Below, one piece after another: positions 33,219 to 49,786 of a stretch of DNA of 64,000 nucleotides. The notes beneath the pieces were generated by a model. The model saw nothing but the letters and a program-made list of their open reading frames with translations. It made no database searches and was not told the DNA's origin. A program made the translations under genes and the position numbers. The stretch's first letter is position 1; each line of letters opens with the position of its first letter. Source of the DNA: Alphaproteobacteria bacterium (lineage in GTDB: Bacteria > Pseudomonadota > Alphaproteobacteria > MPNO01 > UBA830); contig OZ251539.1 in NCBI GenBank assembly GCA_965243135.1, positions 3,296,001 through 3,360,000 on the forward strand. The letters are read 5' to 3'.

Positions 33219-33232
33219 TGCCGGCCCGCGTC

Positions 33233-34186: not shown

Positions 34187-34983
34187 CCGAGAGCCTCCTG
34201 CAGGTCGAAAACGGGACCTTCCCTGCACACCCTCCTGTGCACGACCGCGCCGTTCGACCGGAACGCCCGCACGCAGCACTGGCACATGCCGAGCCCGCAC
34301 GCCATTTGCTGTTCGAGAGCGACCTGACCGGGAAGCCCGTATTTTTTTCCCAGCGACTGAAGCAGCCTCAGGATGCGGTCGGACCCGCACGTGTAGAGCG
34401 CATCGACCGTCTCCGCCCGTTCCTCGATCAGACGGCCAAGGTTGTCCATGCCCGACGTGCCGTCGGAATCGGTGACCGTGACAACTTCGGCGCCGAGGCC
34501 GCGGAAAAAATCCACCGACATGAGCAGGGAAGGCGTCCGCGCCGAGCAAATCGCCGTCAACGCGCGGCCGAGACGCTTCGCTTCCAGCGCGAGAGGCGCG
34601 AGCGTCGCGAGACCGACGCCGCGGGCGACCAGCATCAGCCTCCGCCAGTCGGGCCGAACCTCGAAGCCGCGGCCAAGCGGTCCCATCAAGGTAAACGGTT
34701 CGCCCGGCCCGAGCTCGGCCATCGCCGCCGTTCCCGCGCCGGTTACCTTGTAGAGAAAATGAAGCTCGCCCGTCTCCGGAAAATAGCCGTAGACGCTCAT
34801 CGGCCGCCGCAGATAGGGCCGCAGCCCGTTCCGCACGGGGCAGAGAAGATGAAAGAACTGGCCCGGCCGACAGTTCAGGATCTCTTGCGGCGCGTCGAGA
34901 ACCAGCAGGCGGTATTCGCCGGCAACCGGGTCGTTGCGCTTTACAGAGCAGGTCCTTTCGAAGACGCGTTCGGACGCCGACAT
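34180..34983 (-). CDS. pyrK: Dihydroorotate dehydrogenase electron transfer subunit
   Basis: PGQFF, LRRPMS, GPLGRGF, 2Fe-2S motif MACGLGMCQCC..VCREGPVF. Confidence 0.9.
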   Translation of the reverse strand: MSASERVFERTCSVKRNDPVAGEYRLLVLDAPQEILNCRPGQFFHLLCPVRNGLRPYLRRPMSVYGYFPETGELHFLYKVTGAGTAAMAELGPGEPFTLMGPLGRGFEVRPDWRRLMLVARGVGLATLAPLALEAKRLGRALTAICSARTPSLLMSVDFFRGLGAEVVTVTDSDGTSGMDNLGRLIEERAETVDALYTCGSDRILRLLQSLGKKYGLPGQVALEQQMACGLGMCQCCVRAFRSNGAVVHRRVCREGPVFDLQEALGW

Positions 34984-35062
34984 TTCTTGTGTTCCGCTTC
35001 GCGAACCGGACGCGTGCCGCCCGGAAAGGACGCAGTTTGGGAGCCTGTGGATATCTTGTCAA

Positions 35063-35111
35063 GAAAATTCTTTGTATAGAGAATTTTCGGATTGAATTCT
35101 CATTATTGAGA
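35063..35111. promoter_or_regulatory. Palindromic operator candidates in the divergent pyrK / XRE promoter region
   Basis: GAAAATTCT-8 nt-AGAATTTTC (35063-35088) and TCTCA-ttat-TGAGA (35098-35111) in an AT-rich gap. Confidence 0.5.
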
Positions 35112-35162
35112 CAAATGCGGAGGAATGATAGTCTTGCGCCCGAAGCGACGACAGGGTGCCGC

Positions 35163-36104
35163 ATGGACGTTTCCATCGAAGAAGTCGGGCGACGGCTGAA
35201 AGCCTTTCGAATGGGGCTGGGGTTGACCCCGGAAGATCTCGCCCGCAACGCGGGCGTTTCGCGCGCCGCCATCTATCGATACGAGGCCGGGCACCCGCCG
35301 AAGATCGAGTCGCTCGTCAGGATCGCCGAAGGGCTCGGCGTCTCGCTGGCCAACCTGCTCGGAGTGGGTGTGGAATACTTCGCTTCCGCCCTCGGCTTTT
35401 TCGAGCGGATGCGCCAGCTCGAGGAGGACGTCGACCAGATCCGGGTCCTGTTCGGGCCGGTATCCTATTTGCTGACGACGGACGGATACGACGACGTTCT
35501 GCCGCGCATGCTGGAGGAAAGCGTGCCGCCCGACGTGCCGGACCGGGAACGGGCGCTGAAGAACATCGAAGCGCTGGTGGCCGTCCTGCGGCAACGCAAG
35601 GAACGCTACCGGCGGCGCCGGCCCGCCGTTCTGAGCCTCGTTTCCGCCGCCGAGCTTCAGCAAATGCTGAGGTTGGGACTCGTCGGTGCCCACCGCCCGC
35701 CCAAAGCGGATCCGGAAGAACGGCGCGAGGCGGCGCGCGCCGAGGTGAAGAACATCGCGCGGCTCCTGCGCGCGCCTCCGATCGGCGTGCAGATCGGCGT
35801 GCTGATCGATTCCATGCCGGGAGCGAGCTTCCAGATATTCCGCCGCGCGTCGGGCGCCGAAGCGACCGAAACGAGGGTCGCGGTCAGTCCCTTTCGCCTC
35901 GGCGCGTTCTCGAACGTGCGGCTCGGCGTCGCGACCGTCACGGCCGCGCCGGAAGCGGCGCGCCTCTACGACGAAATGACCGACGCGCTCTGGTCGCGCA
36001 GCCTCAAGGGCGACCGGGCCGCCGATTACATCGAGTCGGAGGTCTGCGGACCGCGGCGACCAGGGCGTCTCGCCGGCGCCGCGCCCGATTCAAGCGACTC
36101 GTGA
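35163..36104 (+). CDS. XRE-family transcriptional regulator with C-terminal sensor domain
   Basis: VGRRLKAFRMGLGLTPEDLARNAGVSRAAIYRYEAG HTH; divergent from the pyrK operon. Confidence 0.85.
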   Translation: MDVSIEEVGRRLKAFRMGLGLTPEDLARNAGVSRAAIYRYEAGHPPKIESLVRIAEGLGVSLANLLGVGVEYFASALGFFERMRQLEEDVDQIRVLFGPVSYLLTTDGYDDVLPRMLEESVPPDVPDRERALKNIEALVAVLRQRKERYRRRRPAVLSLVSAAELQQMLRLGLVGAHRPPKADPEERREAARAEVKNIARLLRAPPIGVQIGVLIDSMPGASFQIFRRASGAEATETRVAVSPFRLGAFSNVRLGVATVTAAPEAARLYDEMTDALWSRSLKGDRAADYIESEVCGPRRPGRLAGAAPDSSDS

Positions 36105-36355
36105 TCGCTTCGCATGACGCCGCCGCGATCGAACGATATCCGGCGGCCCGGACGCCTCGACAATTCGGCGGGAAGGTCGGAAAGGAGCGGAGGAACGACC
36201 GCGCGACTGGGATGCGGCCTCGAGAGCGAGCGTCGAGCGGCGGCTTCGCGCCGCGGATCGACGCGGCCGCCGACGGCCCGTTCTCGGGAAGACCGCCCGC
36301 CCGACGCGCCCGGCGGCGGCTTGGCGACTCGTTCTCGCCGGCGAGATCCGTCAGG

Positions 36356-37261
36356 TCAGGGCGACGCCGCTCGCGCTGCGTCGTCGCGAAATCCGTCGAC
36401 GATCTTGTCCGTCATCTGACGAAGCTCGGCGAATTCCAGAACGCCGAGTTCGCGCGAACCGCCGATAAAGCACATCGACTGACAGACGTCCCGGACGAAA
36501 TCCTTCGACGGAGGCCGCTCCTCGGGCGATTGCGGAAGCAGCCGCGCCAGGCTGGCGGCGACCGCGTTCTGGACGACGCTCATTCCGAACACCGGATTCT
36601 TCGACACCATCGCCGAAACGAACCATTCCCAATGCCCTTTCGATTCCCGGAGCATTTTCCCGATCCGGGTTTTCTCTATCCCGGAGCTTTCCTCGGCCTG
36701 GCGAAGCAGGCGTTCCCGCCACCACGCGCGCGCGAACGGGCAGTCCACGAAAACGCTTCTGTTTCCCCGGACATGCGGCAGACCGCCCATCTGCCGGAGG
36801 ATCGAGCGCACGCAGTCGTCCATCCGGACTTCAGGTTTCGGGTCGTTCCTCGACAACGCCCGGTCGATGCGCTCCGCCCCCGTCTGGGAAGAAACGCCGT
36901 TGCTCGCAAGATAGCTCGGCTCGACGAGGCGGGAACGCACGTGCTCCACAGTGAAGTTCGTCCAGAACGACGTGCGCGACGCGACCGCGGGCGGAAGTTC
37001 CTTCCAAAGATCGTACATGCGGGCCTCGGTATCGCACGGCGGATTCTTGAACTGCGCTTCGCTGAGGCGCGACGGGTACAAGTCCGGATTCCTGTCGCCG
37101 ATCACCGATATCCGATCCATCTCGCGAACGAAGGCATCGCCGTCCCTCACCGCTTCGAGGAACCTCTGCTGACCGCGACCGCCTTTTTCGCGCAGCAGTT
37201 TGGCGCGGTAATTCGACCACTTCTCGTCATCGAGCTGCTTCCAGTCCGACCAGTCAGTCAT
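36356..37261 (-). CDS. Hypothetical protein, paralog of 41845-42726
   Basis: MTDWSDWKQLDDEKW..LSEAQFKNPPC..SFWTN..GNRSVFVDCPFARAWWRER, colinear with the 41845 gene. Confidence 0.8.
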   Translation of the reverse strand: MTDWSDWKQLDDEKWSNYRAKLLREKGGRGQQRFLEAVRDGDAFVREMDRISVIGDRNPDLYPSRLSEAQFKNPPCDTEARMYDLWKELPPAVASRTSFWTNFTVEHVRSRLVEPSYLASNGVSSQTGAERIDRALSRNDPKPEVRMDDCVRSILRQMGGLPHVRGNRSVFVDCPFARAWWRERLLRQAEESSGIEKTRIGKMLRESKGHWEWFVSAMVSKNPVFGMSVVQNAVAASLARLLPQSPEERPPSKDFVRDVCQSMCFIGGSRELGVLEFAELRQMTDKIVDGFRDDAARAASP

Positions 37262-38120
37262 CTTCTTCCTTCGTCGGCAAAGCCATTTCATGGGGGTAGA
37301 GCAATGTCGCGGCTTCTTCGGGCCTGAACTCCGTGTCGCTCCAGTCGCAGTAGTTCTCGTCGGCAAGCCTGTCCGCGAGCGTTTCGAGGGACTTGTACGC
37401 GCGCCAGCCTTCCTCCCCTTCGTCCTCGGGAGGATATTCCCGCTGAAGGGCGGCGAAACAGGACGTAACAACGTGAATCATCACGTCGGCGCGCTGCGTC
37501 CGTCGCCCCTTTTTTCCCTGAAGCAGGGCGTGGAGTTCCGGGTTGCAACGCACCTCGAAGCGGAACGCGTCGCCGGCGACCACGTCGGTGCGAAACCGGC
37601 CGGAACCGAGCGCGTCGTCCAGACGGATCGAGATGAGACTCTCCATACCCGACGACTTGAGTTGAAGCACGGGCCCCAGCGCCAGCCATGCGCCCTTCGG
37701 AAACGCCGCCTCGACGCCGTCCCAGGCCGGATGGACCTGGTCCTTGCCGGAATCGAGAACGCAGCGGACGTCCTCGACGCACAGGATCATCGGAGTGAAA
37801 TACGGCGGCTCGCCGAAATTCTTCGGATCCCATTCGATCTTCTGCGTCGCGCCGCAGGACCGCAGTATTTCCCGATAAGCCGAGCGGGGAGCCGAAATGG
37901 CGCAGGCGAAAACGGCTTTCTTCTCCGCCAACAGCCTTTCCACCAGCCGCGCTCCCTCGACCGCGTGCCGCATGACGAAGCGCGACGGGTGGGATCCGTC
38001 GGCTTCGGTATCGATCATGTAATTTCCGTCGGGAAACGAATCGTTCCCCCCTTCGATCACTGGATAAACGCGAGCAGGGAGGGCATTCGTCGACGCGCTG
38101 TCCTTCGCGAGAATTTTCAT
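37254..38120 (-). CDS. Hypothetical protein, paralog of 42719-43588
   Basis: YPVIEGGNDSFPDGNY, APRSAYRE, PPYFTPMI, FPKGAWLALGPVL, VTSCFAALQR are shared with the 42719 gene. Confidence 0.8.
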   Translation of the reverse strand: MKILAKDSASTNALPARVYPVIEGGNDSFPDGNYMIDTEADGSHPSRFVMRHAVEGARLVERLLAEKKAVFACAISAPRSAYREILRSCGATQKIEWDPKNFGEPPYFTPMILCVEDVRCVLDSGKDQVHPAWDGVEAAFPKGAWLALGPVLQLKSSGMESLISIRLDDALGSGRFRTDVVAGDAFRFEVRCNPELHALLQGKKGRRTQRADVMIHVVTSCFAALQREYPPEDEGEEGWRAYKSLETLADRLADENYCDWSDTEFRPEEAATLLYPHEMALPTKEEDD

Positions 38121-38617
38121 TCCGAGGGATCTCCAGCGGAGTGATCCTGTCCGGGCGCGCTGATCTGCACGCGCAGGCCCGCGTCCGGGCGCACCATTCT
38201 CGCGGACGCGGAAACCTACGGCCCGCACCTCGCGGGCGGCGACCTCGTCTCCTGGACGGTCCGGGAGGTCGAAGAGGTTCACGAACGCGACGACGCGATC
38301 CGGAAACCGCTCTGGCCGAACGACGCCTCGCGGCTCGAGTCGCCGGGCGCGGAACTCGCGGAGGCGGCCGTCGCGGGTCCCGCCGATCTCGCGCGCGGCG
38401 ACGTTCTTCGGTGGACGGAGACGGTCGAGGCCGGGCCGTGGGCGGCGTCGCCGGAAGAACGGACGATCGAGGCCGTCGTCGAGGATATCGCGGCCGACGG
38501 CGAGGACGCCGGGAAGGACGGGATCGGCCTCCTGGTCCGGCAGGCCGGGGGCGCGCCTTGCAGGAGAAGGAAGCCGGGCGGCGAGCCGGCCGCCGCGAGC
38601 TGTCTCAGGCGTAGCCG

Positions 38618-39538
38618 CTACGGGACGACGATCTCGCAGGCGGACCGCTTGCCGGCGGCGCGCGCCCGGAGGACGCAGTCGGCGATTTCCGCGCCGTAGC
38701 GGTTCCAGACGAGGTCGCGCCAGCCGTTGGTGGGGTCCGGCGCCGGAAGGATCGCAAACTGCGCATGAAGGAGCAGGCCGAGGGCGAGCAGGCACGGCGC
38801 TCCGACGGCGGCGACGGCGGCCGCCAGCCGCCGGCTACGGGTCCGGTTGACCGACTGCCAGCGCTGGAAATCGGCGGCGCGGGTGCGGACCTGCTTTTCC
38901 AGTTTGGCCGCGGCGGCCGCGACGCTCGCGGGGGAGCCGACCTGTCCGGCTGGTTCGACATCCGCGACGGGCGGAACGACGTCCGCGGTCGCGGCTTCGG
39001 AAGCCTGGACGACCGTTTGCCCGGCGTCTTCGGGAGCGGCGGCCGCTTCGGGCGCCGCCCCGGCTTCCGGGGAGTTGGCCGCGAACTTGTCCGCCGCCGT
39101 TTCGAGTCGGCCGGTGCGCATCTCGATGAATTTGGCGAGGTTGGTTTCGGTCTCGGCGGACTGCGCCGAGATCCGCTCCAGAAGGTTCGGAACGGCCTCC
39201 GGCGGCGCGTTGCGGCGCGGCGGGGCGGTCAGGCGCCTTTCGATCGCGGCCGGCAGTTCCGCCAGCCGCTCGTCGATGTGCTTTCTGATGTTCGTTTCCG
39301 CTTCCGGGATCCGCCCGAGAATCTTTCCGAGCAACCTGTCTCCGGTTTCGTTCGCCGCGCCGGCGGCTTCCGCCACCAGTTCCGCAGGACGGGTCGCGGA
39401 CAACGAAGCCGACGGGGGCGGCAGAGCCGTCAAGCCTGCAGATCGCCGGTCCGGAACGACAGGTTCAGGCTCCGGCGCGATCGCGGCAATCCCGGGCGGC
39501 GCCGCTGCAGGTTCCGTCCCCTTCTGGAGGTCCGTCAT
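38618..39538 (-). CDS. Hypothetical Ala/Pro-rich protein with C-terminal TM segment (possibly mobile-element associated)
   Basis: Long ORF with GC-typical codons, AGGA upstream, TM-like AAAVAAVGAPCLLALGLLL, then DPTNGWRDLVWNRYG..C..C. Confidence 0.55.
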   Translation of the reverse strand: MTDLQKGTEPAAAPPGIAAIAPEPEPVVPDRRSAGLTALPPPSASLSATRPAELVAEAAGAANETGDRLLGKILGRIPEAETNIRKHIDERLAELPAAIERRLTAPPRRNAPPEAVPNLLERISAQSAETETNLAKFIEMRTGRLETAADKFAANSPEAGAAPEAAAAPEDAGQTVVQASEAATADVVPPVADVEPAGQVGSPASVAAAAAKLEKQVRTRAADFQRWQSVNRTRSRRLAAAVAAVGAPCLLALGLLLHAQFAILPAPDPTNGWRDLVWNRYGAEIADCVLRARAAGKRSACEIVVP

Positions 39539-39943
39539 GCCATTTTTCCTTCTTGAGCCGCTCGGCAAGTTGCCCGATCGAAACTCCGAATAACAGGGCT
39601 ACGGGGGCGCAATCGCCGACAGGGCGACATTGTCCATGGCTGCCTTCCGGCTTTCGGCATCGCGTCTGGAGGCGTATGCCAATTCACGGGGCCTCTTCAC
39701 GGATCAAGAGGTCTCTTCTCATGACGAACTCAGTTAGAACTGCGCGTCGGGGCGCTCGGACTGCGCCGGTTCGCGGCGCAGGACAAACGGCGAGCGTCGG
39801 CCCGCCCCCGGGAAGGGGATTTTTTCGCTGCGGCGGCACCTTGACTCACCGGCCAACCCATCCCCATACTACCTTGGCGACAGGGATTGCCGACCGTCGG
39901 TATTGCACTTCGGAGTTGATAGCGGGCATTCATAAATGAAATC

Positions 39944-41812
39944 TCAATCGAATCTGGATAGTGTTTTAATTTTTTCTACGACCAGATCTGCTCGCCTACG
40001 GATGAATTTGTTATATCTTTGCTCGACGTTGCCGTCAGCTCGCATTGCATCGTAAGGAACGAGATGCGCTTCGACTCGGCGCTTTATTTCTTGCTCTCCT
40101 ATGTTTTGTTCAGTGAGAATCTCGTTTAGATATTCATTCGGATCCCTCTTCGAAAATTTCCGATTTGTGCGGCTGTCTAGCAATACTCCGTTCAGCCCGT
40201 GCTGAATTCGTTTTTTGTCGTTTATACCACTGCGTTTGAGAAAATCCATAGGAAAAACATGATGCCGATCAAGTGCACGACTGTCTTCGAGTTCTCGAAT
40301 TTTGGCAGCATCTAATCCATTTCCGATTATCCAACCAGGCGGTGAATCGGAAAGAACCGCTGTCAAAATTGCCCGTCCCAATCGCCCTTTGGCACCAATC
40401 CATGGTACCTCCTTTCCAAGATCTCCAGCCTCCGGCAACGGGTATTCTGCGTCGCGAAATACCTCTGGCATTCGGGTAGGGTTTCCACGCTCCGCTATTT
40501 CTCGCAAACAGACCAATAGTTGCTGATAGTCTTCCAGAACTCGGTCGTTCGCTTGCATTTCGTGTCTATTTGTAAACAAACATCGCCAGTAATAGGCATC
40601 TAGAAGTCTGTGGGCGGTGCCTTGTCGTGCCGGATCTGTGATCTGAACAGTGGCCTCTCGTAACGCGGCGAGGACGTGCAGCGGTGGCCAGCTCGGCAAT
40701 GTTCCTATTGTTGGCGCACCATGTCTCGACGCAAATTCCAAGGCGTGCTTGAGGTCCTCAAATACGCTGCTTAGATTGGCGAGACCCTGCGGGGTTCCCG
40801 TTGGCGCCAGCGACTCCAGCGCGTATTCGTAGTTCGATTCCTTTGGAGGTTTCATTGCCTTCAGGCATGCGACCTTTAACATCCATACCCCGATATCCGG
40901 TATCCAATCGTCTTCATTGCGCCCGAAATAGTACTGGAAAATCTCGTTTTCATTATATGCGGCTCGTATACGATCCCGAAGGCTTTCATCGTAAGTACCT
41001 CGGGCGATTGCCACAACGATGTCGAATCGTTTAATTGGGGCCGACGAACTGTTTGTCTCGATGAAAATATCAACGGCAACATCGATGGTGGTTTGCTCCG
41101 GCAGACTGCAATACCAAAGATTTGTTTTGAACAGGAGCGGTTCTCGCAACTGTGCGTTTATCGCCTTATCTAAAAGCGATACCGGTGCCGCATCTCCGTC
41201 ACCAAATGCTTCATGGCACCAGTTCCATATTTTTCCGAGATCCTCAGGATCTTTTTCTGCATCCCATAGAATATCCGTCGGCAAATAGTTATCGGAAAAA
41301 GCGTTTTGGGGAATCGCCAATCGCTTGCCTTTTGCAGTATTTTGTCGAACCGGCTCGACTTCCTGTACAGCGAGATTTCGATTTTGAAAGTCGTCTACTT
41401 TAATGTAGAAACGATAGTCACTATCATCGGGAAATTTTAGGAGTGCGTGCCAAAGCGAAGTAAGGCGTTGCTGGCCATCAAGCACGAGTTCCGTAACTTG
41501 TCTAGGTCTCCGATTCATACCGCTGAACATTCGGGAATCAAACTGTGGTTCCTCCGCGCTACGTAGGATCAGCATTATTCCCGTTGGCCTGGTTTGCAGT
41601 AAAGCCAACAGATAGTTTGCTGTTTTTTGAGGCGACCAGGTCCAGCTACGCTGAAATTCCGGCAACGCCAGTCGGCCTTCTTCTGCCATTTTTAGCCATG
41701 TCTCAATGTTTCGATGTTCGTACCGAACAACATCATCTGTTGTCACGTTAATCCTCCTGAATTCTTCCTGAGATTTCTGCGACACGGTACCGTAGTTGAT
41801 TCCACGCCACAC
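39944..41812 (-). CDS. DUF262 (GmrS/SspE-like) domain protein with C-terminal HNH/DUF1524-like motif
   Basis: LPEFQRSWTW, VLDGQQRLTSL, IFIETN; C-terminal DRHHVFP..NGVLL..TNR; visibly low GC. Confidence 0.85.
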   Translation of the reverse strand: MWRGINYGTVSQKSQEEFRRINVTTDDVVRYEHRNIETWLKMAEEGRLALPEFQRSWTWSPQKTANYLLALLQTRPTGIMLILRSAEEPQFDSRMFSGMNRRPRQVTELVLDGQQRLTSLWHALLKFPDDSDYRFYIKVDDFQNRNLAVQEVEPVRQNTAKGKRLAIPQNAFSDNYLPTDILWDAEKDPEDLGKIWNWCHEAFGDGDAAPVSLLDKAINAQLREPLLFKTNLWYCSLPEQTTIDVAVDIFIETNSSSAPIKRFDIVVAIARGTYDESLRDRIRAAYNENEIFQYYFGRNEDDWIPDIGVWMLKVACLKAMKPPKESNYEYALESLAPTGTPQGLANLSSVFEDLKHALEFASRHGAPTIGTLPSWPPLHVLAALREATVQITDPARQGTAHRLLDAYYWRCLFTNRHEMQANDRVLEDYQQLLVCLREIAERGNPTRMPEVFRDAEYPLPEAGDLGKEVPWIGAKGRLGRAILTAVLSDSPPGWIIGNGLDAAKIRELEDSRALDRHHVFPMDFLKRSGINDKKRIQHGLNGVLLDSRTNRKFSKRDPNEYLNEILTEQNIGEQEIKRRVEAHLVPYDAMRADGNVEQRYNKFIRRRADLVVEKIKTLSRFD

Positions 41813-41844
41813 GAGGTGTTGAGACTACTTCCAATGGTAAGAAT

Positions 41845-42726
41845 TTATGGATCAGTATCGAGAATGGAATCGATAATCTTCTCCGTCATTTGGCGCACCT
41901 CCACAAAATCAAGAACACCGAGTTCTCGGGAACCTCCGACGAAACACAGTGCATGACAGACGTCTTGGACTAGTCTTGACGGTGGTGGCTTTTCGTCCGG
42001 TGATTGCGGAAGCAGACGCATCAAACCCACGGCTGCTGCGTCTTGGACAAGGCTAGTTCCGAAAACCGGACTTCTCGAAACCATTACCGAAACGAATTCT
42101 ACCCAGTGATTCTTCGATTGCCGGAGCAATTCGCCAATTTGGGCTTTGGGTAGACCGGACCTTTGTTCGGCGCTGCGGAGCACCCGCTCCCGCCACCATG
42201 CTCGCGCAAACGGGCAGTCGGCGAGAACGCTTCTATTGCCCCTCTGCGGTAAACCACCCAGTTGCCGAATGACCGAGCGGACACATTTGTCCATTTGTAT
42301 CTCCGCATTAGTCCCGGTTTTCCTCATCAACACCCGGTCGATGCGTTCCGCTCCTGTCTGGGATGAAATGCCGTTGCTCGCGAGATAGGTTGGCTCTATG
42401 CGGCCGGACCGTACATGTTCCATGGTAGCGTTCGTCCAGAACGACGTGCTTGACGCAACCTTTGGTGGAAGATTCTTCCACAATTCGTACATCTTGACCT
42501 CGGTAGAGCACGGTGGACTCTTGAATTGCGCTTCGCTGAGCCGAACTGGGTAAAGCTCCATGGCGGTATCGCCTACCACAGGTATCCGGTCGATTTCGGC
42601 GATGAAGCCATCGCCGTCCTTCAGCGCCCTCAGGAATTTTTCCTGCTCGGCACCGCCCTTAACGCTCAGGATGTCTTCGCGGAAGGATGACCACTCCGCG
42701 TCGTCCAACCGCTTCCAGTCAGTCAT
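41845..42726 (-). CDS. Hypothetical protein (weakly DUF6339-like), island-2 operon gene 5
   Basis: Overlaps the upstream gene; LPPKVAS..FWT..H and FARAWW resemble the 'W..L.H / SRLWW' pattern from memory. Confidence 0.75.
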   Translation of the reverse strand: MTDWKRLDDAEWSSFREDILSVKGGAEQEKFLRALKDGDGFIAEIDRIPVVGDTAMELYPVRLSEAQFKSPPCSTEVKMYELWKNLPPKVASSTSFWTNATMEHVRSGRIEPTYLASNGISSQTGAERIDRVLMRKTGTNAEIQMDKCVRSVIRQLGGLPQRGNRSVLADCPFARAWWRERVLRSAEQRSGLPKAQIGELLRQSKNHWVEFVSVMVSRSPVFGTSLVQDAAAVGLMRLLPQSPDEKPPPSRLVQDVCHALCFVGGSRELGVLDFVEVRQMTEKIIDSILDTDP

Positions 42727-43588
42727 CTTCTTCTATAGCGATCGCAGGCAAAACATGAGGGTGGAGCAGAGTTGCAGCTCTTTCGGGATTGAACTCCTCT
42801 CCGGCACTCCAGTCGCAGCAGCCCTCGGCGGCAAGAATGGACGCGAGCGTTTCGAGTTCCTTGTACGCACGCCAGCCATCATCTCCGTCGTCTACTGGAT
42901 ATTTCCGTTGAAGTGCGGCGAAACAGGATGTCACGACGTGCGTCATTATATCGGCGCGGCGTGCCCGATGCTCGCCCCGCCCCTGAAGCAAGCTGTGAAG
43001 ATCGGGGTGACAGCGCACATCGAAGCGGAACGTGGGGTCGCCGTCGATGGCTTTCGTGTAAAACTGGCCGACGACAAGCGTGTCGTCGGCACGGATATAA
43101 ATCAGACTTTGAATGCCGGAGGCACCGAGCCGTAGCACGGGTCCCAGTGCTAGCCAGGCACCTTTCGGAAACGTCGCCTCGATACGATCCCAATCTGGAT
43201 GAACATCATCCTCTTCGGACTTTAGGATATGATGTACATCTTCTATGCAAACGATCATCGGAGTGAAATACGGCGGATCGCCAAAATTCGCTCGATCCCA
43301 CGCAACCTCCTGGGTCGCATTGTCGGAGCGTAGTACTTCTCGATAAGCGGAACGGGGGGCGGCGAGCGCACAGGCATAGACGGCTTTCTTTCCCAAGATC
43401 AGATTTTCTACCAAACGCGCCCGTTCTACCTTGTGACGCAATTTGAATCGCGAGGTGTCGGAGCCAGCGTGTTCAGTTTCGATCAGATAGTCTCCATCCG
43501 GGAAAGAATCGTTGCCCTCCTCGATTACCGGATAATCGCGAGCAACAATGGCATTCGCCGGAACACCGCCCTTGGCTCGTATTATCAT
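42719..43588 (-). CDS. Hypothetical protein, island-2 operon gene 4
   Basis: ATGA overlap with the GHKL gene; N-terminal YPVIEEGNDSFPDGDY. Confidence 0.78.
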   Translation of the reverse strand: MIIRAKGGVPANAIVARDYPVIEEGNDSFPDGDYLIETEHAGSDTSRFKLRHKVERARLVENLILGKKAVYACALAAPRSAYREVLRSDNATQEVAWDRANFGDPPYFTPMIVCIEDVHHILKSEEDDVHPDWDRIEATFPKGAWLALGPVLRLGASGIQSLIYIRADDTLVVGQFYTKAIDGDPTFRFDVRCHPDLHSLLQGRGEHRARRADIMTHVVTSCFAALQRKYPVDDGDDGWRAYKELETLASILAAEGCCDWSAGEEFNPERAATLLHPHVLPAIAIEEDD

Positions 43589-45534
43589 TCCGACTGTTCT
43601 CCGCCTTCGGCATTCAGCCGATATGCGCCGATCTCAATGCGCAGACTGGCATCCGGCAGAACCGGGACGGCGTCGCCATCAAGAGCGTATTCCACCATGA
43701 CCTCGGTCGTCGTTCCTTTCTCAAGACGTCCGAGTCGAATGGCGGGGTATGGTGTGATTACGACCCTTTCCGGCGGAACCGGTACGCCGCTGATTTTGGC
43801 GCTCCTTATGCCGGCCAGTCTGTCGGGCCAAATTCGATCGGTCGTGACATCTGTCCGATCATCTACGATCAGCCGGAGCTCCAGGTCATCGCAGGTCTCG
43901 GTGCAGCGAATCTTGATTCGTTTGCTATCCTGGCCAGCAGGCGTGACGACCGCTGTGAAGTTCGAAGGCAACGCTGGCCTTCGTGCGGATTGATCGCGTT
44001 GGCCGTTCTTGCCGGATCCGCCGCTTGCCTCGCCGTTGCCGCCGGAACGTCCAGCGCCGGGATTGGTGCCGACAGAGCGTTGCATGGAAATGCGCCGATG
44101 TATGGGGGTAACGATTCCGCGATAGTCCCAGCCGTATCTCGGGCCAGAGGGGTTTTCGGTGCTGTCGGTAAAAGCCAAGAAATCGGAGGGATTGTAAGGC
44201 TCGTCGGAAAATATCGGTATTTCGTTCCGAAAAAATTCGATGACGTCATCGAATGCCTTGTTGAGCTGCTTTCGATCTTCGGGCGTCAGGTGTTTGGGTT
44301 CGAGCCCGTTGTGCGACGGTCCCTCGGCCTTCCTTATCAGGTCGTGAAACTCGGGAGCCGTCTCCGCGGCGACCAGAATCAACGCCTCGAAGGCTTCATG
44401 ATTCGAAAGGGTGGCATGAAGGCGTGGAATGCCGCCACGGTCGCTTGTAACCCACATGCCGTTTCGGAAAAGGTTGACACGCATTGTTCCCGAACTGGCG
44501 GGATGCTGAACGACGATTTTCACTGTTCCGTCCAGTACGTCCACATCGCGGCAGGTGCCGCGCACAAGAGCGTTGTATGAAAAATACGCTTTCTCGCCGG
44601 AAATATAGCCTCCACGGACTCGTTTGCGTTGCTTGCAGCGGCCGAGCGCTTCGTCCAGACTCCCGCGGTTGAGGGTCCATGACGTATCGCCGTCGTCCAC
44701 GATGACTTCGAGCCGTTCTTCCTCGACCGCAGGAAAGAAGCTGCAGACGGCCGCTTCCGATACGGCGTCCTTCAAGCAAATCTTTTCCTTGAACCGGTTG
44801 AATGCGGGTACGATGACGGCCGTTCCATGCTCGTAACTGCATTCGATTTCGGACAGAGCTTTTCTAATCAATGGCGGCAATTCATCCTTATCAAGATAAA
44901 GGTGTTCCCGACCATCGTTCCCGGCCAGATAGTATCCGTTAGCGCTGCGTCCAATTTTATCTCTTTGATCCTCATCGTGAGACGCCAAAATCGCATGCCC
45001 GCTTCCAATCCACTGCTTATTGCATATCCCGCCGTACAGGACGTATCTGAGATCGGAAAGCGGCAGGACCGACAAATGACCGACGCCGAACGCGCCGACG
45101 GCATGCTTTCCTTTATTTGCGGCGCCGTCCGCAAGAAGAGCGTTCATCCGTTCCTCGTCGAGACCGACGCCATTGTCGGTGACGACCAGTACATCCTGTA
45201 GATCTCGCTCGAGGGCCTTGCTGATCGCGTCGACAACCATCTTTTCCTGGTCGCTGAGGCCCGTTTTGGCCTCCCGTCTCTTTTTGGCCTTCTTGAAGGC
45301 GGATCTATAGCTGCTGATCCCGGGTATAGCTTTGGTCTTCACCTGCGTCGTTGAAAATCGAACGACGGCTTTGGAGACTTGAGCCTCTTGGGCGGCGTCG
45401 AGCGAATTCTGGATCAGTTCCCTTACGATTACATTGGCGCCTGTATCCCGGAAGCTGGAGATACCCGCAGCGACAAATCCAACCGCTTCGGCTGAAGTCA
45501 GAAACGTCAACCTCGGGTGCGGATACTTGTTCAT
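43585..45534 (-). CDS. GHKL (HATPase_c / MutL-MORC-like) ATPase domain protein
   Basis: Bergerat-fold motifs RELIQNSLDA, VTDNGVGL, GAFGVG, GTAV; Gly-rich linker before the C-terminal domain. Confidence 0.82.
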   Translation of the reverse strand: MNKYPHPRLTFLTSAEAVGFVAAGISSFRDTGANVIVRELIQNSLDAAQEAQVSKAVVRFSTTQVKTKAIPGISSYRSAFKKAKKRREAKTGLSDQEKMVVDAISKALERDLQDVLVVTDNGVGLDEERMNALLADGAANKGKHAVGAFGVGHLSVLPLSDLRYVLYGGICNKQWIGSGHAILASHDEDQRDKIGRSANGYYLAGNDGREHLYLDKDELPPLIRKALSEIECSYEHGTAVIVPAFNRFKEKICLKDAVSEAAVCSFFPAVEEERLEVIVDDGDTSWTLNRGSLDEALGRCKQRKRVRGGYISGEKAYFSYNALVRGTCRDVDVLDGTVKIVVQHPASSGTMRVNLFRNGMWVTSDRGGIPRLHATLSNHEAFEALILVAAETAPEFHDLIRKAEGPSHNGLEPKHLTPEDRKQLNKAFDDVIEFFRNEIPIFSDEPYNPSDFLAFTDSTENPSGPRYGWDYRGIVTPIHRRISMQRSVGTNPGAGRSGGNGEASGGSGKNGQRDQSARRPALPSNFTAVVTPAGQDSKRIKIRCTETCDDLELRLIVDDRTDVTTDRIWPDRLAGIRSAKISGVPVPPERVVITPYPAIRLGRLEKGTTTEVMVEYALDGDAVPVLPDASLRIEIGAYRLNAEGGEQSE

Positions 45535-46673
45535 ACGCCCTCTCCAAGTCTCCGAAACGCTTTTGCCGCTGCCGAGACGTCATCCTCGGTCGTGAAACGC
45601 CCCAAACTGATGCGCACCCCTTGCAGAGCTTCAGTCGGAGAATATCCAAGGGCGGAAAGCACATGAGAAGGAGAGGCGCCTTGGGAGGAACAGGCCGAAC
45701 CGGTCGATACCGCCACGCTTTCCCGCAGCCGTTCCGCCACGGCGTCGCCCGACAGGTCGGGGAACGAGACGTTGAGATTTCCCGGAACGCGCAACCGTTC
45801 GTGACCGTTGAGGCGAATCCCCGGCACGGCTTCGGATAACGAACACCAGAGGATTCCGGTCAGTTCCCGAATCCTCGCCGAATTGGTCTCCATCTCTTCG
45901 ACCGCGATTTCGCAGGCCTTTCCGAAGCCCATGGCGAGATGCACCGGGACCGTGCCGGAACGAAGGCCCCGTTCCTGTCCGCCGCCGGCGACCATCGGCG
46001 CAAGCCGTTCGAACGCCTCCTCCCGAACGTAGAGCGCGCCGATTCCCATCGGGCCGTACATCTTGTGGGACGACAGCGACAACAGGTCCACGCCGAGCGC
46101 GTCAACATCGACCGCCATGCGGCCTGCCGCCTGCGTGGCGTCCGTGTGCATCAACGCGCCGTTGTCATGGGCTATCGCGGCGACTTCGGAAACCGGCTGA
46201 ACGACTCCGATCTCGTTGTTGACCAGCATGACGGAAACCACTGCCGTCCGGCCGGACACCGCCCGCCGCAGTTCGGCGAGATCCACGATGCCGTCGGGGC
46301 CGACCCCGACGATGCGAGTTCGACCGCCCCCGTCGGCAATGGCGCGAACGGATTCCAGGACGGCCGGGTGTTCGGTCGCCAGCGTAACGATTTCGTCCCG
46401 GTCCCCGCCGGGTCCGACCGCGCCCCTTACCGCAATATTGCAGGACTCCGTCGCGCCGGAGGTCAGAATCACTTCGTCGTCGCCTGCGCCGAGAAGGGAC
46501 GCGATCTTCGCGCGGGCGGACGTCACCGCCCTCGCGGCGGACCAACCGTACGCATGATGGACGGAGTGAGGATTCCCGAACCGCTCGCCCAGATACGGCG
46601 CCATCTCTTCCCGAACGCGGGAATCGAGCGGAGTCGTCGCCTGATAGTCCATGTATACCGGAGCGGACGTCAT
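45531..46673 (-). CDS. Cysteine desulfurase (IscS/DndA/SspA-like, group I)
   Basis: MDYQATTP, TSGATES, EHPAV, NNEIG, HTDATQ, SSHKMYGP (PLP Lys), STGSACSS (catalytic Cys); TGATG overlap with the upstream gene. Confidence 0.93.
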   Translation of the reverse strand: MTSAPVYMDYQATTPLDSRVREEMAPYLGERFGNPHSVHHAYGWSAARAVTSARAKIASLLGAGDDEVILTSGATESCNIAVRGAVGPGGDRDEIVTLATEHPAVLESVRAIADGGGRTRIVGVGPDGIVDLAELRRAVSGRTAVVSVMLVNNEIGVVQPVSEVAAIAHDNGALMHTDATQAAGRMAVDVDALGVDLLSLSSHKMYGPMGIGALYVREEAFERLAPMVAGGGQERGLRSGTVPVHLAMGFGKACEIAVEEMETNSARIRELTGILWCSLSEAVPGIRLNGHERLRVPGNLNVSFPDLSGDAVAERLRESVAVSTGSACSSQGASPSHVLSALGYSPTEALQGVRISLGRFTTEDDVSAAAKAFRRLGEGV

Positions 46674-48085
46674 CAGTCCGTGCAGTCGCACGGCAACGTC
46701 GCCGCAGCCTCCCTGAACGCTTTGGCTCCCCGTTCGGCAATTCTCCGATAGGTCAGGCCCTTGCTGTCCCGACCGAAAAATCCGACGAAGCCCTCGGCGC
46801 CGCGGCCTTCCGCGTCGAGATCGCGCGTGTACTCCTTCTCGATGCGCGCCCACCAGTCGATGTCCATCGGCGTGTCGCGCTCGTCTTCCCGCTCGCCGGA
46901 CATGCGATCCTCGCAAATGCTCTTGTAGATGCCCGCGAGGTTCGACGTCCCCTTGAGAAAGCAGTACACGCAGTTGGAGAGGTGCCCGGACGCCGGAAGC
47001 CGGAGTTCCATGCCGGGATTGAGCTCCCAGAACGCGTTGACGTCGGCCCTCTCCACGCGCATGTCCGACAGCGGCATGTAGACGTGTTCGCCCTCGTATC
47101 CCTGCGCTTCCGGACCGCCCGCCCTTCTCGCCTCGACGCGCTGCACCCTGTTCTGTTCGTCGTACCTCAGCCCGATGAACGCGACGTATTCGACGCCGCC
47201 GGATCCGAATGCGGCGTTTCCGCCGTACGCATTCCCGGAAAGCGAGGGGTTGTCCGCCTTCAGAGGAGCGGCCGAGTAATCCTCGTAGCGCTGCTCCGGC
47301 CGGTGCACTGGACGAGACAGAACGAACGCCTTCTTTCGCAGAAAGATATCCTTCGGAACCTTGCCCCTGTTTCGCCTGTGGCGCCGGTACAGGGCTTCGC
47401 CTTCCACCTGCGGCATCTCCTCCCAGTGGCCCAGATGCGGGATTCCTTCCTTGCAGGCCAGCCAATCGCGAAGAAACATGCGGGTGACTTCAAGCTTGAG
47501 CGCCTTCGTGCATATCCTGCGAAACTGATTGGGGACGTAGCCGGACCACGACAGCAGTTCCTCGAAAGGTTCGCCACGGCAGCTGTATCCGTTCGGATTT
47601 GCCCCGGACCGCGGTTCGGCATTGACCAGACGGTAGGAGCCGAGGCGCGTCCATTCCCCGTTCCGCGCGTCTTCGTAGGTCTGGTACTCGACCAAAAAGA
47701 ACGGGATGCCATAGCGCGACTCGGCCAGACGCTTGCACTTGGCGACGAACTCGTAGGTCGCGGGATGCTCGGCGGCGGTATTGTTGAAAAGGACGACGTC
47801 GCCCCGGCGCGCATCCAGAATGCCGTTCTCCAAAAGGGTGAACAGGAGCATTCCGCTTGACCGCCCGCCGGAGAACTTCACGACATGCGGGAGGTCCCGA
47901 TGCTGCTTGCTACGATATCGGAAGCTCAGCCCGCACGGGGGGGGGGGGGGGGGGGAATTCCGAGAAACCAGAAGCTTCGGCGCGCCGACCACGGCTTCCG
48001 GCAGGTCGTCGACAACGGGCAGCGATGTTTCCGGACGGATCCCGCCCCGCGTCGCACGGTCGCGAAGATGCAGGTTCAGCGTCAT
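46673..48085 (-). CDS. PP-loop / PAPS-reductase-like protein (DndC/SspD-related fold) with Cys clusters
   Basis: VVKFSGGRSSG PP-loop, NTAAEH..TYEF, RICTKALK, IGLRYDE..R, SNCVYCFLKG, C-terminal PCDCTD. Confidence 0.85.
   Translation of the reverse strand: MTLNLHLRDRATRGGIRPETSLPVVDDLPEAVVGAPKLLVSRNSPPPPPPCGLSFRYRSKQHRDLPHVVKFSGGRSSGMLLFTLLENGILDARRGDVVLFNNTAAEHPATYEFVAKCKRLAESRYGIPFFLVEYQTYEDARNGEWTRLGSYRLVNAEPRSGANPNGYSCRGEPFEELLSWSGYVPNQFRRICTKALKLEVTRMFLRDWLACKEGIPHLGHWEEMPQVEGEALYRRHRRNRGKVPKDIFLRKKAFVLSRPVHRPEQRYEDYSAAPLKADNPSLSGNAYGGNAAFGSGGVEYVAFIGLRYDEQNRVQRVEARRAGGPEAQGYEGEHVYMPLSDMRVERADVNAFWELNPGMELRLPASGHLSNCVYCFLKGTSNLAGIYKSICEDRMSGEREDERDTPMDIDWWARIEKEYTRDLDAEGRGAEGFVGFFGRDSKGLTYRRIAERGAKAFREAAATLPCDCTD
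47937..47955 (-). repeat. Homopolymer G19 (C19 on the coding strand) in the 5' part of the PP-loop gene
   Basis: ccgcac-G19-aattc; encodes SPPPPPP and is currently in frame. Confidence 0.9.
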
Positions 48086-48091
48086 GGTGCC

Positions 48092-48120
48092 ATATTAGCC
48101 GCCATCGATCCGTTTGTCAA
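48092..48120 (-). promoter_or_regulatory. Near-consensus sigma70 promoter, leaderless, for the island-2 operon
   Basis: Minus strand reads TTGACA-17 nt-TAATAT-6 nt-ATG(48085). Confidence 0.7.
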
Positions 48121-48338: not shown

Positions 48339-49247
48339 CTACATGACTCGTCCCGACAGGTCGATTTCGGGAGGCCGGAACACATGCTTCGCATGCCACG
48401 CGACGAACTTCGGCTTCGGGGCGGCCTCCGCCGTTGCGGGCATCAGTATTCTTCCGCCGTCCAGCGGACTAAGCCGTCGGACGGCGTCGCCCTGGTCGCC
48501 CACCGTCCTCGACACCATCACGCTGAAACCCTCCGCCTCTGGCCTCAGACCGAACGCGCCACGGTCGAACGCGGCATGATGCAGGACGCAAAGCGCCAAC
48601 CCGTTCGAGACGAAGTCGGGGCCCTTCTGCACGCGCCATTGAATATGCGCGGCGTCGAGGCCGATGGTTTCGTCGCGCATGCGAAGCCCGTAGCCGCAGA
48701 CCGCGCAGCGATGCCCGTAGGCTTCGAGAACCTCTCCGCGAAAATCGTCGTTCGCCGGCTTGTCGAGAAGGCTATCGACGGAAACGAGGGTCGCTCTCAG
48801 AATGTCCTCGTGTAGCGACGGCGGAAAGTGCCTGTCGAGAAGCAGCCTCGCCGCCTGCCATGCGAGGCCGGGCTTCATCTGCAACAGCTGGAATATGTGC
48901 TTCGGGAAACCGCCTCGCACGCCTCGTTCAATCAGCGCGTTCCGATTGAGAGTTCCCCAGCTTCCGGCAGGAAGTCCTTTGCCATCCGGTATTTCCCAGA
49001 GTTCGTCCTTGCGCAGGAAGCCGAACGGAGCTTCGGGATATTGTGTCTCGGCAGGCCGACCGAAACGATCAAGCAAACCGGCAAGCGGGCCTTGTAGTTC
49101 CTTGAACGTCGCAAGACGAGGGTATCCCGCAAGGACCCGTCCGAAAGCCAGCAACAGCAGCAGAGGCTTGTGGGGCGCACGATAACCGTTCGTGACCCGA
49201 ACCTTGATCCCTTCGACCTGCTTGAGAAAATGTTCGTCGTCGTTCAT
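48339..49247 (-). CDS. HNH endonuclease with N-terminal SBD-like (phosphorothioate-binding type) domain
   Basis: RAPHKPLLLL..PEAPFGFL..DELW N-domain; CAVCG..DAAHI..GPD..SNGLALCVLHHAAFDRG HNH domain. Confidence 0.8.
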   Translation of the reverse strand: MNDDEHFLKQVEGIKVRVTNGYRAPHKPLLLLLAFGRVLAGYPRLATFKELQGPLAGLLDRFGRPAETQYPEAPFGFLRKDELWEIPDGKGLPAGSWGTLNRNALIERGVRGGFPKHIFQLLQMKPGLAWQAARLLLDRHFPPSLHEDILRATLVSVDSLLDKPANDDFRGEVLEAYGHRCAVCGYGLRMRDETIGLDAAHIQWRVQKGPDFVSNGLALCVLHHAAFDRGAFGLRPEAEGFSVMVSRTVGDQGDAVRRLSPLDGGRILMPATAEAAPKPKFVAWHAKHVFRPPEIDLSGRVM

Positions 49248-49253
49248 GAGCGG

Positions 49254-49281
49254 AAACGAACTCCTGCAAACGAACTCCTGC
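49254..49281 (-). repeat. Perfect 14-bp tandem duplication containing the Shine-Dalgarno of the HNH gene
   Basis: Minus strand: gcAGGAGttcgttt twice, then ccgctc ATG. Confidence 0.7.
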
Positions 49282-49786
49282 GCACCGGAATCCGTTGCAG
49301 CATACAGGTCATTGCGGGCTTCCGGTATAGGCACCCGGCGTGCGGCCGACCGGATTTTGGAACGAGCGAAAAATAACCCCGCCGAATAACCCGCGACGAT
49401 ATCCGCAACCGCTTCGTCCGGTTGGAGCGGCGGACGACCTCCCCGGAACCCCGCAGCATGAGGCGCCGCGACTTCTCCCGGGCCGGCCAAGCGCAAGAGC
49501 AGGGAACCCTCCGCCGACGGCGTGGTTCGGCGGTTGCGAGAGCGGTTGCCGGACTTCGGCGAGCGCTTCGGTTACGACAACAAGCCGTGGATAGCCACTC
49601 GACGGGGGAGACCGGCAAAACTCTCGACGAAGGCGAAGCCATGGTTCGGGCTGCAAGCGGATCCAGGAATTCCGGCGTGCTTCGGCGTGACCCGCGCCTC
49701 CCCTCGGCGGCGCGTCCCGTCGAGCCGCCGGCGCGCAAGGCGGCGCCTGCCGAAATGTTCGAACGGGACGTCGACGGCTCCCGGCT

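Follow-up and report, generated by a model that had tools for sequence, protein, structure and literature searches.

The described systems closest to the locus reported here are those that write phosphorothioate (PT) into DNA, of which the available part of PMC12914056 counts four: dnd, ssp, tdp and brxPCZL. In the same part, Tdp is given as a three-gene cluster of which tdpC alone makes PT, and in BREX type 4 the 3'-phosphoadenosine 5'-phosphosulfate (PAPS) reductase protein BrxP replaces the PglX methylase and an mcrA gene lies inside the PT cluster. PbeABCD, DndB and SspE are described components of PT systems (PMC9239217 and PMC9646914, in their available parts), and the SspE nuclease needs PT to act (PMC9646914). 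This study concerns a cluster of six genes, g1 to g6, in a 64,000-nucleotide stretch of an alphaproteobacterial genome (contig OZ251539.1, positions 3,296,001 to 3,360,000; hereafter the window). Judging by their sequences, the first five genes most likely form a mobile, self-contained system in which a sulfur self-mark on the host DNA, most likely PT in the DNA backbone, is used for defence. We consider it probable that the genes work together as one DNA-sulfuration defence system and that this differs from the four already established, from Tdp by description only. The first-pass annotation had proposed a non-canonical DNA-sulfur pathway with a restriction arm, and this proposal gains support from the occurrence of all core genes in 61 of 71 related loci, from SspD and BrxP matches and the fold predicted for g1, from the PT accessory genes of relatives and from a neighbouring gene with a homologue of the ScoMcrA sulfur-binding domain (SBD).

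A recurrent core of five genes

The genes g1-g6 follow one another in a single direction along the minus strand, over positions 39944-48085 (Table 1). The g1/g2 junction is TGATG, a 1-nt overlap evident from both coordinates and sequence; g2/g3 and g3/g4 overlap by 4 nt each, g4/g5 by 8 nt at the junction sequence ATGACTGA, and a gap of 32 nt separates g5 from g6. The GC content from g1 to g6 is 0.63, 0.65, 0.56, 0.55, 0.55 and 0.48, as against about 0.65-0.70 in the flanks, a drop that fits acquired DNA. All six co-oriented open reading frames (ORFs) of the first-pass annotation are thus present, and its TGATG/ATGA-type joins of the first five genes, 32-bp gap to g6 and fall of GC toward the 3' end (0.63 to 0.48) agree with the coordinates and composition.

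A scan of one genome per species yielded 71 loci with close g1 relatives (42-68% identity), all in metagenome-assembled genomes (MAGs). Their labels include Gamma- and Alphaproteobacteria, Verrucomicrobiae, Spirochaetia, Longimicrobiales, several acidobacterial orders, Dehalococcoidia, Latescibacterota, Binatia, Nitrospirales and others. When the ORFs were clustered, g1 was found in 71 loci, g3 in 69, g2 in 67 and g4/g5 in 64, and the core genes follow the order of the window. A search for recurrence of the gene order in other genomes had been suggested along with the first-pass annotation; it was run, and all core genes were present in 61 of the 71 loci. For the 43 loci in which all five genes are of full length, the distance matrices of any two of g1-g5 are correlated (r 0.86-0.94, a value reached in 0 of 999 permutations), indicating that g1-g5 travel and diverge as one block. 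The last three core genes, g3-g4-g5 (hereafter the trio), diverge faster, with mean distances of 0.53-0.58 against 0.40-0.42 for g1 and g2. When the organism's own phylum was sampled evenly, 2 of 401 genomes proved to carry g1 at full length. There are departures from the common layout: L054:3860-19226 holds one g1, three tandem GHKL-g4-g5 trios and a g4-g5 fusion, and no desulfurase was found in this locus; in L069:10001-16042, g1 is split by about 3 kb with opposite-strand ORFs and g3 is truncated.

The cluster had been described in the first-pass annotation as a six-gene operon including a DUF262-HNH gene. Its g1-g5 part recurs as such, but a g6-like DUF262 nuclease is found in only 20 of the 71 loci, after g5 or between g2 and g3, the latter place being occupied by accessory modules in some loci. 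The core therefore comprises the five genes g1-g5, and g6 is an exchangeable accessory. The first-pass annotation did not list the upstream SBD-HNH gene, the 19-C tract in g1 or the second pair g4'-g5' (Table 1), nor the PDC-M33 and DUF6339 matches described below.

Table 1. Position of the genes and other features of the locus within the window
Feature	Position	Strand	Description
g1	46673-48085	minus	470 aa
g2	45531-46673	minus	380 aa
g3	43585-45534	minus	649 aa
g4	42719-43588	minus	289 aa
g5	41845-42726	minus	293 aa
g6	39944-41812	minus	622 aa
SBD-HNH gene	48339-49496	minus	385 aa, 253 bp upstream of g1
Promoter-like site	48092-48120	minus	TTGACA-17 nt-TAATAT, 10/12 positions match
19-C homopolymer (coding strand)	47937-47955	minus	5' part of g1, encodes S-P6
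g4'	37254-38120	minus	intact g4 copy, 63% identical, tblastn 3e-119, profile 2e-97
g5'	36356-37261	minus	intact g5 copy, 64% identical, tblastn 3e-130, profile 2e-110
Dispersed repeat, ~90 bp	39834-39927	undefined	directly after g6 stop

Protein families of the core genes

On the basis of its motifs and modelled fold, g1 is proposed to be the sulfur-inserting enzyme, a PP-loop ATP pyrophosphatase of the PAPS-reductase fold. In an alignment of 49 g1 homologues the PP-loop S72-G-G-x-S76-S77 is invariant, as are six cysteines (C117, C192, C372xxC375 and C466xC468), and the motifs FSGGRSS, NCxxCFLKG and CxC picked out in the first-pass annotation are all present and invariant in this alignment; the C-terminal CxC falls in a stretch of the model with a predicted local distance difference test score (pLDDT) <50. 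The AlphaFold2 model as a whole has a pLDDT of 81 and a predicted template modelling score (pTM) of 0.86. Structural comparison with VIA-align matched it to CysD of ATP sulfurylase (1zun, Z 10.2), PAPS reductase (7rge, Z 10.1), adenosine 5'-phosphosulfate (APS) reductase (Z 9.4), the iron-sulfur (Fe-S) tRNA thiolase NcsA (6scy, Z 9.3) and TtuA (Z 7.8). The PAPS domain of FAD synthase is also among the fold matches, and those with Z 9-10 span 158-194 aligned residues. The SGGxDS-type loop and the fold together place g1 in the PAPS-reductase-like PP-loop superfamily. A Foldseek search of the PDB with the model gave no match at E<=0.001, the top hit being APS reductase at 0.028, and a sequence/profile search of the PDB with the g1 profile gave nothing significant.

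At the sequence level, the PADLOC SspD model matches 49 of 49 members of the g1 family, BrxP 48 and DndC 4, all weakly and partially. The best SspD match in the family is 5e-11, the g1-BrxP match 2.8e-4 and the best DndC match 0.0038; the SspD profile (277 positions) is covered only in part by the 470-aa g1. With hhalign, g1 was aligned to the genome's own DndC from the PP-loop through the CTxxLK motif with an E-value of 9e-4 and a probability of 22%. No Pfam match, no significant NCBIfam match and no match to DndC (TIGR03183) at E<=0.01 were obtained for g1. The organism's true DndC, encoded elsewhere in the genome, reaches 337.8 bits with TIGR03183, above the cut-off, and the earlier view that g1 is not a canonical DndC is upheld. 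From sequence comparison and modelling, g1 appears to represent a new family within the superfamily of the known PT enzymes. This family accounts for at least 1758 sequence clusters in the protein collection; the 120 relatives among the matches listed are all unnamed or 'hypothetical' and without a Pfam domain. A plasmid search with g1 gave only weak partial matches, in Alteromonas and Pseudomonas megaplasmids, and in the one Alteromonas record examined the match adjoins exosortase and polysaccharide genes. A second g1 paralogue, in L114:9751-13313 (G063), has a topoisomerase III gene (1.5e-123 to a solved Topo III) immediately before it.

The g2 product is, by its family matches, a class V cysteine desulfurase dependent on pyridoxal 5'-phosphate and similar to DndA, SspA and IscS (Pfam Aminotran_5, 9e-79; PADLOC SspA, 1.6e-136, and DndA, 9e-136). 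It scores under the NCBIfam cut-offs for IscS, DndA and NifS, and its paralogues elsewhere in the genome are 42-44% identical.

The first gene of the trio, g3, encodes what its motifs identify as a GHKL (Bergerat-fold) ATPase. It contains all three Bergerat motifs, I (ExxxNxxD), II (DxGxG) and III (Gly-rich), along with a linker rich in Gly and a C-terminal domain that is conserved. The residues E39, N43, D46, D120xGxG124, G147 and G150 are invariant among 41 sequences, as are D558 and D562 in the C-terminal domain. The protein matches PADLOC PDC-M33A (1e-31) and, weakly, the NCBIfam sacsin-N/HSP90-like model. The g4 protein matches PDC-M33B (2e-9), and the two genes thus follow one another in the A-then-B arrangement of PDC-M33, one of the PADLOC PDC-M series, which are reportedly the candidates of Millman et al. 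In hhalign, the g4 family was related to the methylase-linked homologue of locus L083 with a probability of 96.5%, and in the protein atlas g4 has look-alikes in unnamed clusters of several phyla. The g5 look-alikes in the atlas are weak leads only (<0.9). Among the members of the g5 family, 31 of 48 match DUF6339 (PF19866) at E<=0.01, with a best value of 1.5e-9. The g5 of the window itself reaches 18.9 bits, the gathering cut-off being 23.2, and is not significantly aligned by hhalign to a single DUF6339 protein; in L073 and L083 the corresponding position is taken by an unmistakable DUF6339 gene. These matches suggest that g5 is a divergent DUF6339 protein, and its AlphaFold2 model is all-alpha with a pLDDT of 90. 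In searches of the PDB with this model, nothing came up in Foldseek at E<=0.001 and the highest VIA Z, 6.4, lies under the noise level of the tool for helical proteins, but the lack of a convincing PDB counterpart does not make the fold new. Sequence/profile searches of the PDB with the g3, g4 and g5 profiles gave nothing significant. The first-pass annotation had listed a GHKL ATPase with two unknown proteins: the ATPase is retained, but the remainder of that description is in part superseded by the PDC-M33A and PDC-M33B matches of g3 and g4 and the DUF6339 relationship of g5.

Complex prediction suggests that g5 binds g4, since the pair scored 0.66 compared with 0.00 for the best control, with runs agreeing in at least 74% of contacts and a partner pLDDT of at least 87. 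Of solved complexes, 58 of 80 attain the mark for this score, compared with 2 of 110 mismatched pairs, counts that are rough, own alignments having been used. A natural g4-g5 fusion ORF of 607 aa occurs in L054:8142-9965. This fusion accounts for the appearance of g4 and g5 in a shared cluster; paralogy of the two was considered and rejected (BLASTP E 0.53).

The trio is also found with other DNA-modifying enzymes. The PDC-M33A model matches 8 of the 401 genomes of the phylum sample. In L083, a C5 DNA methylase is followed by M33A, M33B-like and DUF6339 (3e-40) genes, and in L086 the trio is followed by a C5 methylase. On a plasmid of Ligilactobacillus salivarius (L073), genes for an S subunit and an N6 methylase precede a trio with an annotated 'DUF6339 family protein', after which come further methylase, helicase and nuclease genes. 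The methylase thus lies upstream of the trio in L073 and L083, as do g1/g2 here, and downstream in L086. In L084 the trio adjoins a reverse transcriptase, and in L085 a g1 gene (41% identical) stands immediately ahead of it with no desulfurase adjoining. In three further loci (L087:6778-14035, L088:6968-14105 and L089:6742-13921), Z1 and DUF4420 (PD-(D/E)XK) genes precede a weakly M33A-like GHKL gene, which is followed by two genes for proteins of about 300 and 260 aa. The association of the trio with methylases elsewhere points to a chassis serving whichever self-mark is present, in which g1/g2 hold the place of the modification enzyme. Such DNA methylases normally work alone, and the four-gene systems of methylase and trio therefore suggest that the trio is the defence side. 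On the other hand, PT synthesis needs a nucleoside triphosphatase (NTPase) besides the PAPS-reductase protein according to the available part of PMC12914056, and on that view g3 would belong to the writer.

Accessory genes and other features of the region

By its domain matches, g6 is a protein of the SspE/GmrSD architecture, with a DUF262 (ParB-like NTPase) domain and a C-terminal His-Me/HNH nuclease. It matches Pfam GmrSD_N (8e-15), and Pfam DUF1524 itself is not matched. Invariant residues among 18 sequences are F53-Q-R55, D112-GQQ-R116, H517, N541, N550 and H583; the protein thus shows the N-terminal QR and DGQQR and the C-terminal H...N...N/H signatures of the GmrSD/SspE type. Among PADLOC models it is the HEC-05 ones, and not those of SspE, that are matched, and a PDB search gave only a weak match to BrxU (7p9k).

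Other accessory genes are present in the related loci. PbeA-like genes occur in 16 of the 71 (PADLOC PbeA 1.7e-148), with neighbours that include a PbeC/DndD-like SMC ATPase (5e-38), and no locus (0/71) has both a PbeA-like and a g6-like DUF262 gene. A DndB-domain protein (Pfam DndB 1e-32) with a small partner is found in 11 loci, mostly immediately upstream of g1. None of the DUF262-HNH, PbeA-like and DndB-like classes is present in the fetched flanks of 27 loci.

The gene upstream of g1 in the window encodes an SBD homologue at residues ~77-231 and an HNH domain at ~250-375, and at the level of domain homology has the SBD plus HNH composition of ScoMcrA. In phmmer searches of the PDB it matched McrA (5zmm, 5e-8) and the HNH of TagI (4e-4), and the SBD-only chains 7ccj, 7ccd, 7cc9 and 5zmo at 1e-7 to 2e-7; Pfam HNH_2 (6e-10) and PADLOC HNH (4e-14) were also matched. 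ScoMcrA-type SBD-HNH enzymes cut PT DNA, and the SBD has been solved in complex with PT DNA. This homology makes the protein a candidate reader of PT DNA. In the alignment with the ScoMcrA SBD, H-R-P reads H-K-P and Y-P-F reads A-P-F, stretches which we take to be sulfur-pocket residues; with these substitutions, sulfur binding is not assured. Homologues lie within 10 kb in 3 of the 71 loci, and the mcrA gene in the BREX type 4 cluster provides a precedent for such a neighbour.

The tract of 19 C residues within g1 is the sole homopolymer of at least 9 bases in the window. Public contigs have 18 C (run X1) or 17 C (run X3) at this position, either of which would break the g1 frame; one assembly breaks there, and runs X4 and X5 gave no contig across the tract. 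P0001, the protein in the collection closest to g1 (92% identical), has a called length of 392 aa and is 5'-truncated. Among the related loci, L060 has 31 C where g1 begins (5' end), and there are 24 C between g1 and g2 in L057, 19 G at the g4/g5 junction in L054 and 10 G where g2 breaks off in L029 (11245-11958); L015 and L003 also have long G/C tracts in or beside system genes. The g1 tract is, from these lengths, probably a slipped-strand on/off switch. Switching off the writer would do no harm to the cell provided that, like SspE, the nucleases depend on PT for their action.

The promoter-like site ahead of g1 is a plausible candidate promoter of the operon. The near-consensus match noted in the first-pass annotation stands, but the region has 5 such sites against 3.7 +/- 1.6 in shuffles, no excess, and the promoter is a prediction only. 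The end of its -10 hexamer is 6 nt from the g1 ATG, which implies either a leaderless mRNA or a g1 start further downstream. The earlier statement that no isc/suf or sulfate genes are nearby holds for the flanking ORFs scanned, which is a partial check.

At the other end of the cluster, the repeat that follows g6 matches 40 places across the genome of the organism, and the contigs show many-fold excess depth over it and loose ends at 39834 and 39926. It looks like a repetitive extragenic palindromic (REP) element or a miniature inverted-repeat transposable element (MITE) and is possibly the edge of the inserted block. Further on lies the second pair, g4'-g5', with the same 8-nt ATGACTGA overlap as g4/g5. 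The GC content at third codon positions (GC3) of this pair exceeds that of g4-g5, with 0.76 in g4' and 0.56 in g4. A profile search of positions 33000-40000 found no GHKL (g3) or g1 gene ahead of the pair, which could be a spare specificity pair or a remnant of an older copy. An upstream extension of g4' into the open frame 38121-38795 was considered, but the GC content by codon position speaks against coding there and the extension was rejected. Between g6 and g4' there is an ORF for an Ala/Pro-rich protein of 316 aa (38618-39568, minus strand), coding-like with a GC3 of 0.82 and with a hydrophobic stretch near its C terminus; scans of family libraries gave no match for it.

Two other sulfur-related clusters are present on contig C1 of the same genome. 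At ~390-394 kb (L104:5942-10382) there are genes for a DndA/SspA-like desulfurase, the true DndC (PADLOC 3e-112) and a DUF262 protein matching PADLOC HEC-06/Orf5, with an SNF2/DpdE-like helicase nearby; DndD had no match at this DndA-DndC-DUF262 cluster. What may be a decayed dnd cluster lies at ~323-325 kb (L095, L096 and L100), where two partial matches to a desulfurase adjoin each other and DndD is matched only over profile positions 415-650 (227 bits, under the cut-off).

As to habitat, four runs holding part of the stretch are labelled 'sponge metagenome' (shares 0.21-0.32), and two of the 71 loci are labelled Candidatus Poriferihabitaceae. These labels are only a hint of sponge association of the carriers.

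Proposed function and comparison with known systems

The solid ground for a functional model is the family assignments and the gene linkage; we infer every mechanistic step. As a member of its family, g2 would take sulfur from cysteine as a persulfide. DndC, SspD and BrxP are thought to adenylate a DNA oxygen and replace it with sulfur, and g1, its invariant cysteines probably holding an Fe-S cluster, would similarly use ATP to adenylate a DNA oxygen and swap it for the sulfur derived from g2. The g3 protein and the g4-g5 pair would make up an ATP-driven, DNA-engaging part. A role of this part in both targeting and restriction, as in BREX, is tentatively put forward at a little under even chances; restriction only is unlikely, and targeting only slightly more so. 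In the model, g6 and SBD-HNH would be add-on nucleases that read PT, PbeABCD-like genes replacing g6 in relatives, and the poly-C tract of g1 would probably switch the system on and off.

In its most specific form, this model makes the locus a fifth kind of PT system and the first built on a GHKL ATPase. A new PAPS-reductase-like family and a desulfurase would be plugged into a methylase-linked chassis on which methyl and sulfur marks are interchangeable, and the phase-variable cassette would move among uncultured bacteria from many phyla, which apparently are often associated with sponges. We rate the chances of this combined proposal slightly better than even. In a bolder version, the mark may be a new thio-modification of DNA instead of PT.

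Several observations weigh against the proposed DNA-sulfuration defence system. Every curated PT model fails to recognise g1, whose SspD and BrxP matches are weak and partial (best 5e-11), and fold matches of Z 9-10 cannot separate PT enzymes from the tRNA thiolases NcsA and TtuA or from enzymes of sulfate assimilation. The second g1 paralogue, 37% identical, has neither trio nor desulfurase within 10 kb. The trio contains no recognisable nuclease, which leaves its role as effector a guess. PT synthesis needs a P-loop NTPase according to the available part of PMC12914056, and the GHKL ATPase found here is without precedent in that respect. Enzymes of the ScoMcrA kind cut PT DNA, and the presence of such a protein next to a PT writer calls for something further to be assumed, for instance that the sequence contexts differ. 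The 71 loci, all in MAGs, are close kin found with patterns from one protein and are not independent. Finally, the varying lengths of the homopolymer were read from assembled contigs and could be errors of assembly.

The resemblance of the g1 model to tRNA thiolases, nearly as close (NcsA Z 9.3, TtuA 7.8) as that to the best matches (10.1-10.2), together with the absence of g1 from all curated PT families, could mean that the sulfur is placed elsewhere than in the DNA backbone, either as a thio-nucleobase in DNA or in the thiolation of tRNA or other RNA, with the rest of the locus responding to it. This is unlikely given that the accessory genes of relatives are those of PT systems (PbeA, PbeC, DndB and SspE-like), that the neighbouring gene bears a homologue of a domain solved with PT DNA, that the PT enzymes SspD and BrxP are the best sequence matches of g1, and that the trio pairs elsewhere with methylases of DNA, not RNA. 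It is markedly less likely that the neighbourhood arose by chance in a defence island from an independent g1+g2 module, a PDC-M33 trio and a DUF262 nuclease. The core genes of 61 of the 71 loci, from many phyla, share a fixed order and overlapping stops and starts, the distance matrices of g1/g2 and g3/g4/g5 are correlated (r 0.86-0.92), and in the trio-only loci L073, L083 and L086 a DNA-modifying enzyme is found at or beside the place of g1/g2. Some observations do favour separate units: the trio occurs without g1/g2 and one g1 paralogue without the trio, accessory insertions between g2 and g3 mark a seam, and DndA-DndC-DUF262 stands without a trio in the same genome.

A role as an epigenetic switch ('phasevarion'), in which a phase-variable sulfur mark alters expression and the nucleases are incidental, would agree with the variable length of the g1 poly-C tract, with the G/C tracts in or beside system genes of several relatives and with the 27 loci that have none of the three accessory classes in the fetched flanks. 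True restriction-modification systems, too, are often phase-variable, and the partners found here (PbeA-like, DUF262-HNH and SBD-HNH) are components of restriction or nucleases; a mobile defence cassette would fit the low GC and the spread over phyla, and a pure switch is rated as no more probable than a chance neighbourhood, if anything a trifle less. Lastly, the cluster might belong to a system already described and unrecognised here, for example TdpABC (2025) or one named after PADLOC 2.0.0, and g3 and g4 do already bear a PADLOC candidate label. This appears very improbable, because Tdp has three genes with tdpC alone making PT (PMC12914056, available part), as opposed to five core genes here, and because the full-text search, supplementary tables not being covered, found no paper that combines the elements of the locus, all g1 relatives among the matches listed being unnamed or 'hypothetical'.

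If the proposed DNA-sulfuration system is real, a fifth PT system with another class of ATPase would widen the rules for putting sulfur into DNA, and a function would be provided for the PDC-M33 candidate and for DUF6339. It would also be the second case, after BREX, in which a single defence chassis takes either methylation or sulfuration. With its five genes the cassette is small enough for direct cloning and testing.

A search of full-text literature, supplementary tables not being covered, found no paper combining PT or PAPS-reductase with GHKL defence, and none on DUF6339 or PDC-M33. There is no GHKL, MORC, HSP90, sacsin or DUF262 in the text of PMC10853773, supplementary tables aside, and no PAPS, desulfurase or Dnd in PMC2292703. 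The elements of the locus are not mentioned in section 6 of PMC12914056, its supplementary neighbourhood tables lying outside this statement. The screen described in the available part of that paper selected for a P-loop NTPase together with a BLAST match to DndC or SspD, and with these criteria it probably misses the g1 family.

Among the six proteins, PADLOC and NCBIfam scans found no DndB, DndD or DndE and PADLOC found no SspB or SspC, as had been noted in the first-pass annotation; BrxC, BrxZ/PglZ and BrxL were likewise not found by PADLOC in the six proteins or in the scanned flanking ORFs. With SspABCD-SspE the locus shares an SspA-kind desulfurase (g2), a PAPS-reductase-type PP-loop enzyme (g1) whose best sequence match, weak and partial, is to SspD, and the build of g6, which is that of SspE. 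Unlike Ssp, it has no SspB (DUF4007) or SspC, its ATPase is of the GHKL and not the P-loop type, and it has the additional g4 and g5/DUF6339. The DndA-like desulfurase, the PP-loop enzyme with conserved cysteines and the PbeA/PbeC- and DndB-like genes of relatives recall Dnd with DndFGH or PbeABCD, whereas g1 is not DndC, DndD and DndE are absent and a true DndC is encoded elsewhere in the same genome. Tdp differs in having three genes compared with the five core genes here, a separation made by description only. The protein upstream of g1 resembles ScoMcrA and SprMcrA in its SBD match and C-terminal HNH, and differs from ScoMcrA in the absence of an SRA domain and in its length (385 aa versus 561).

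The resemblance to BREX type 4 lies in an ATPase chassis that is linked to methylases elsewhere and here carries a PAPS-reductase-type enzyme, in the McrA-type gene beside the writer and in the weak BrxP matches of the g1 family. In contrast to brxPCZL, the chassis consists of GHKL, PDC-M33B and DUF6339 proteins, and the desulfurase gene is inside the operon. PDC-M33, an untested PADLOC candidate, corresponds to the locus in the M33A match of g3 and the M33B match of g4, with DUF6339 as the third gene in L073 and L083. The locus differs from the PDC-M33 examples examined in that the trio goes, here and in the 71 loci, with g1 (in 67 of them also with g2), and not with methylases or with Z1 and DUF4420.

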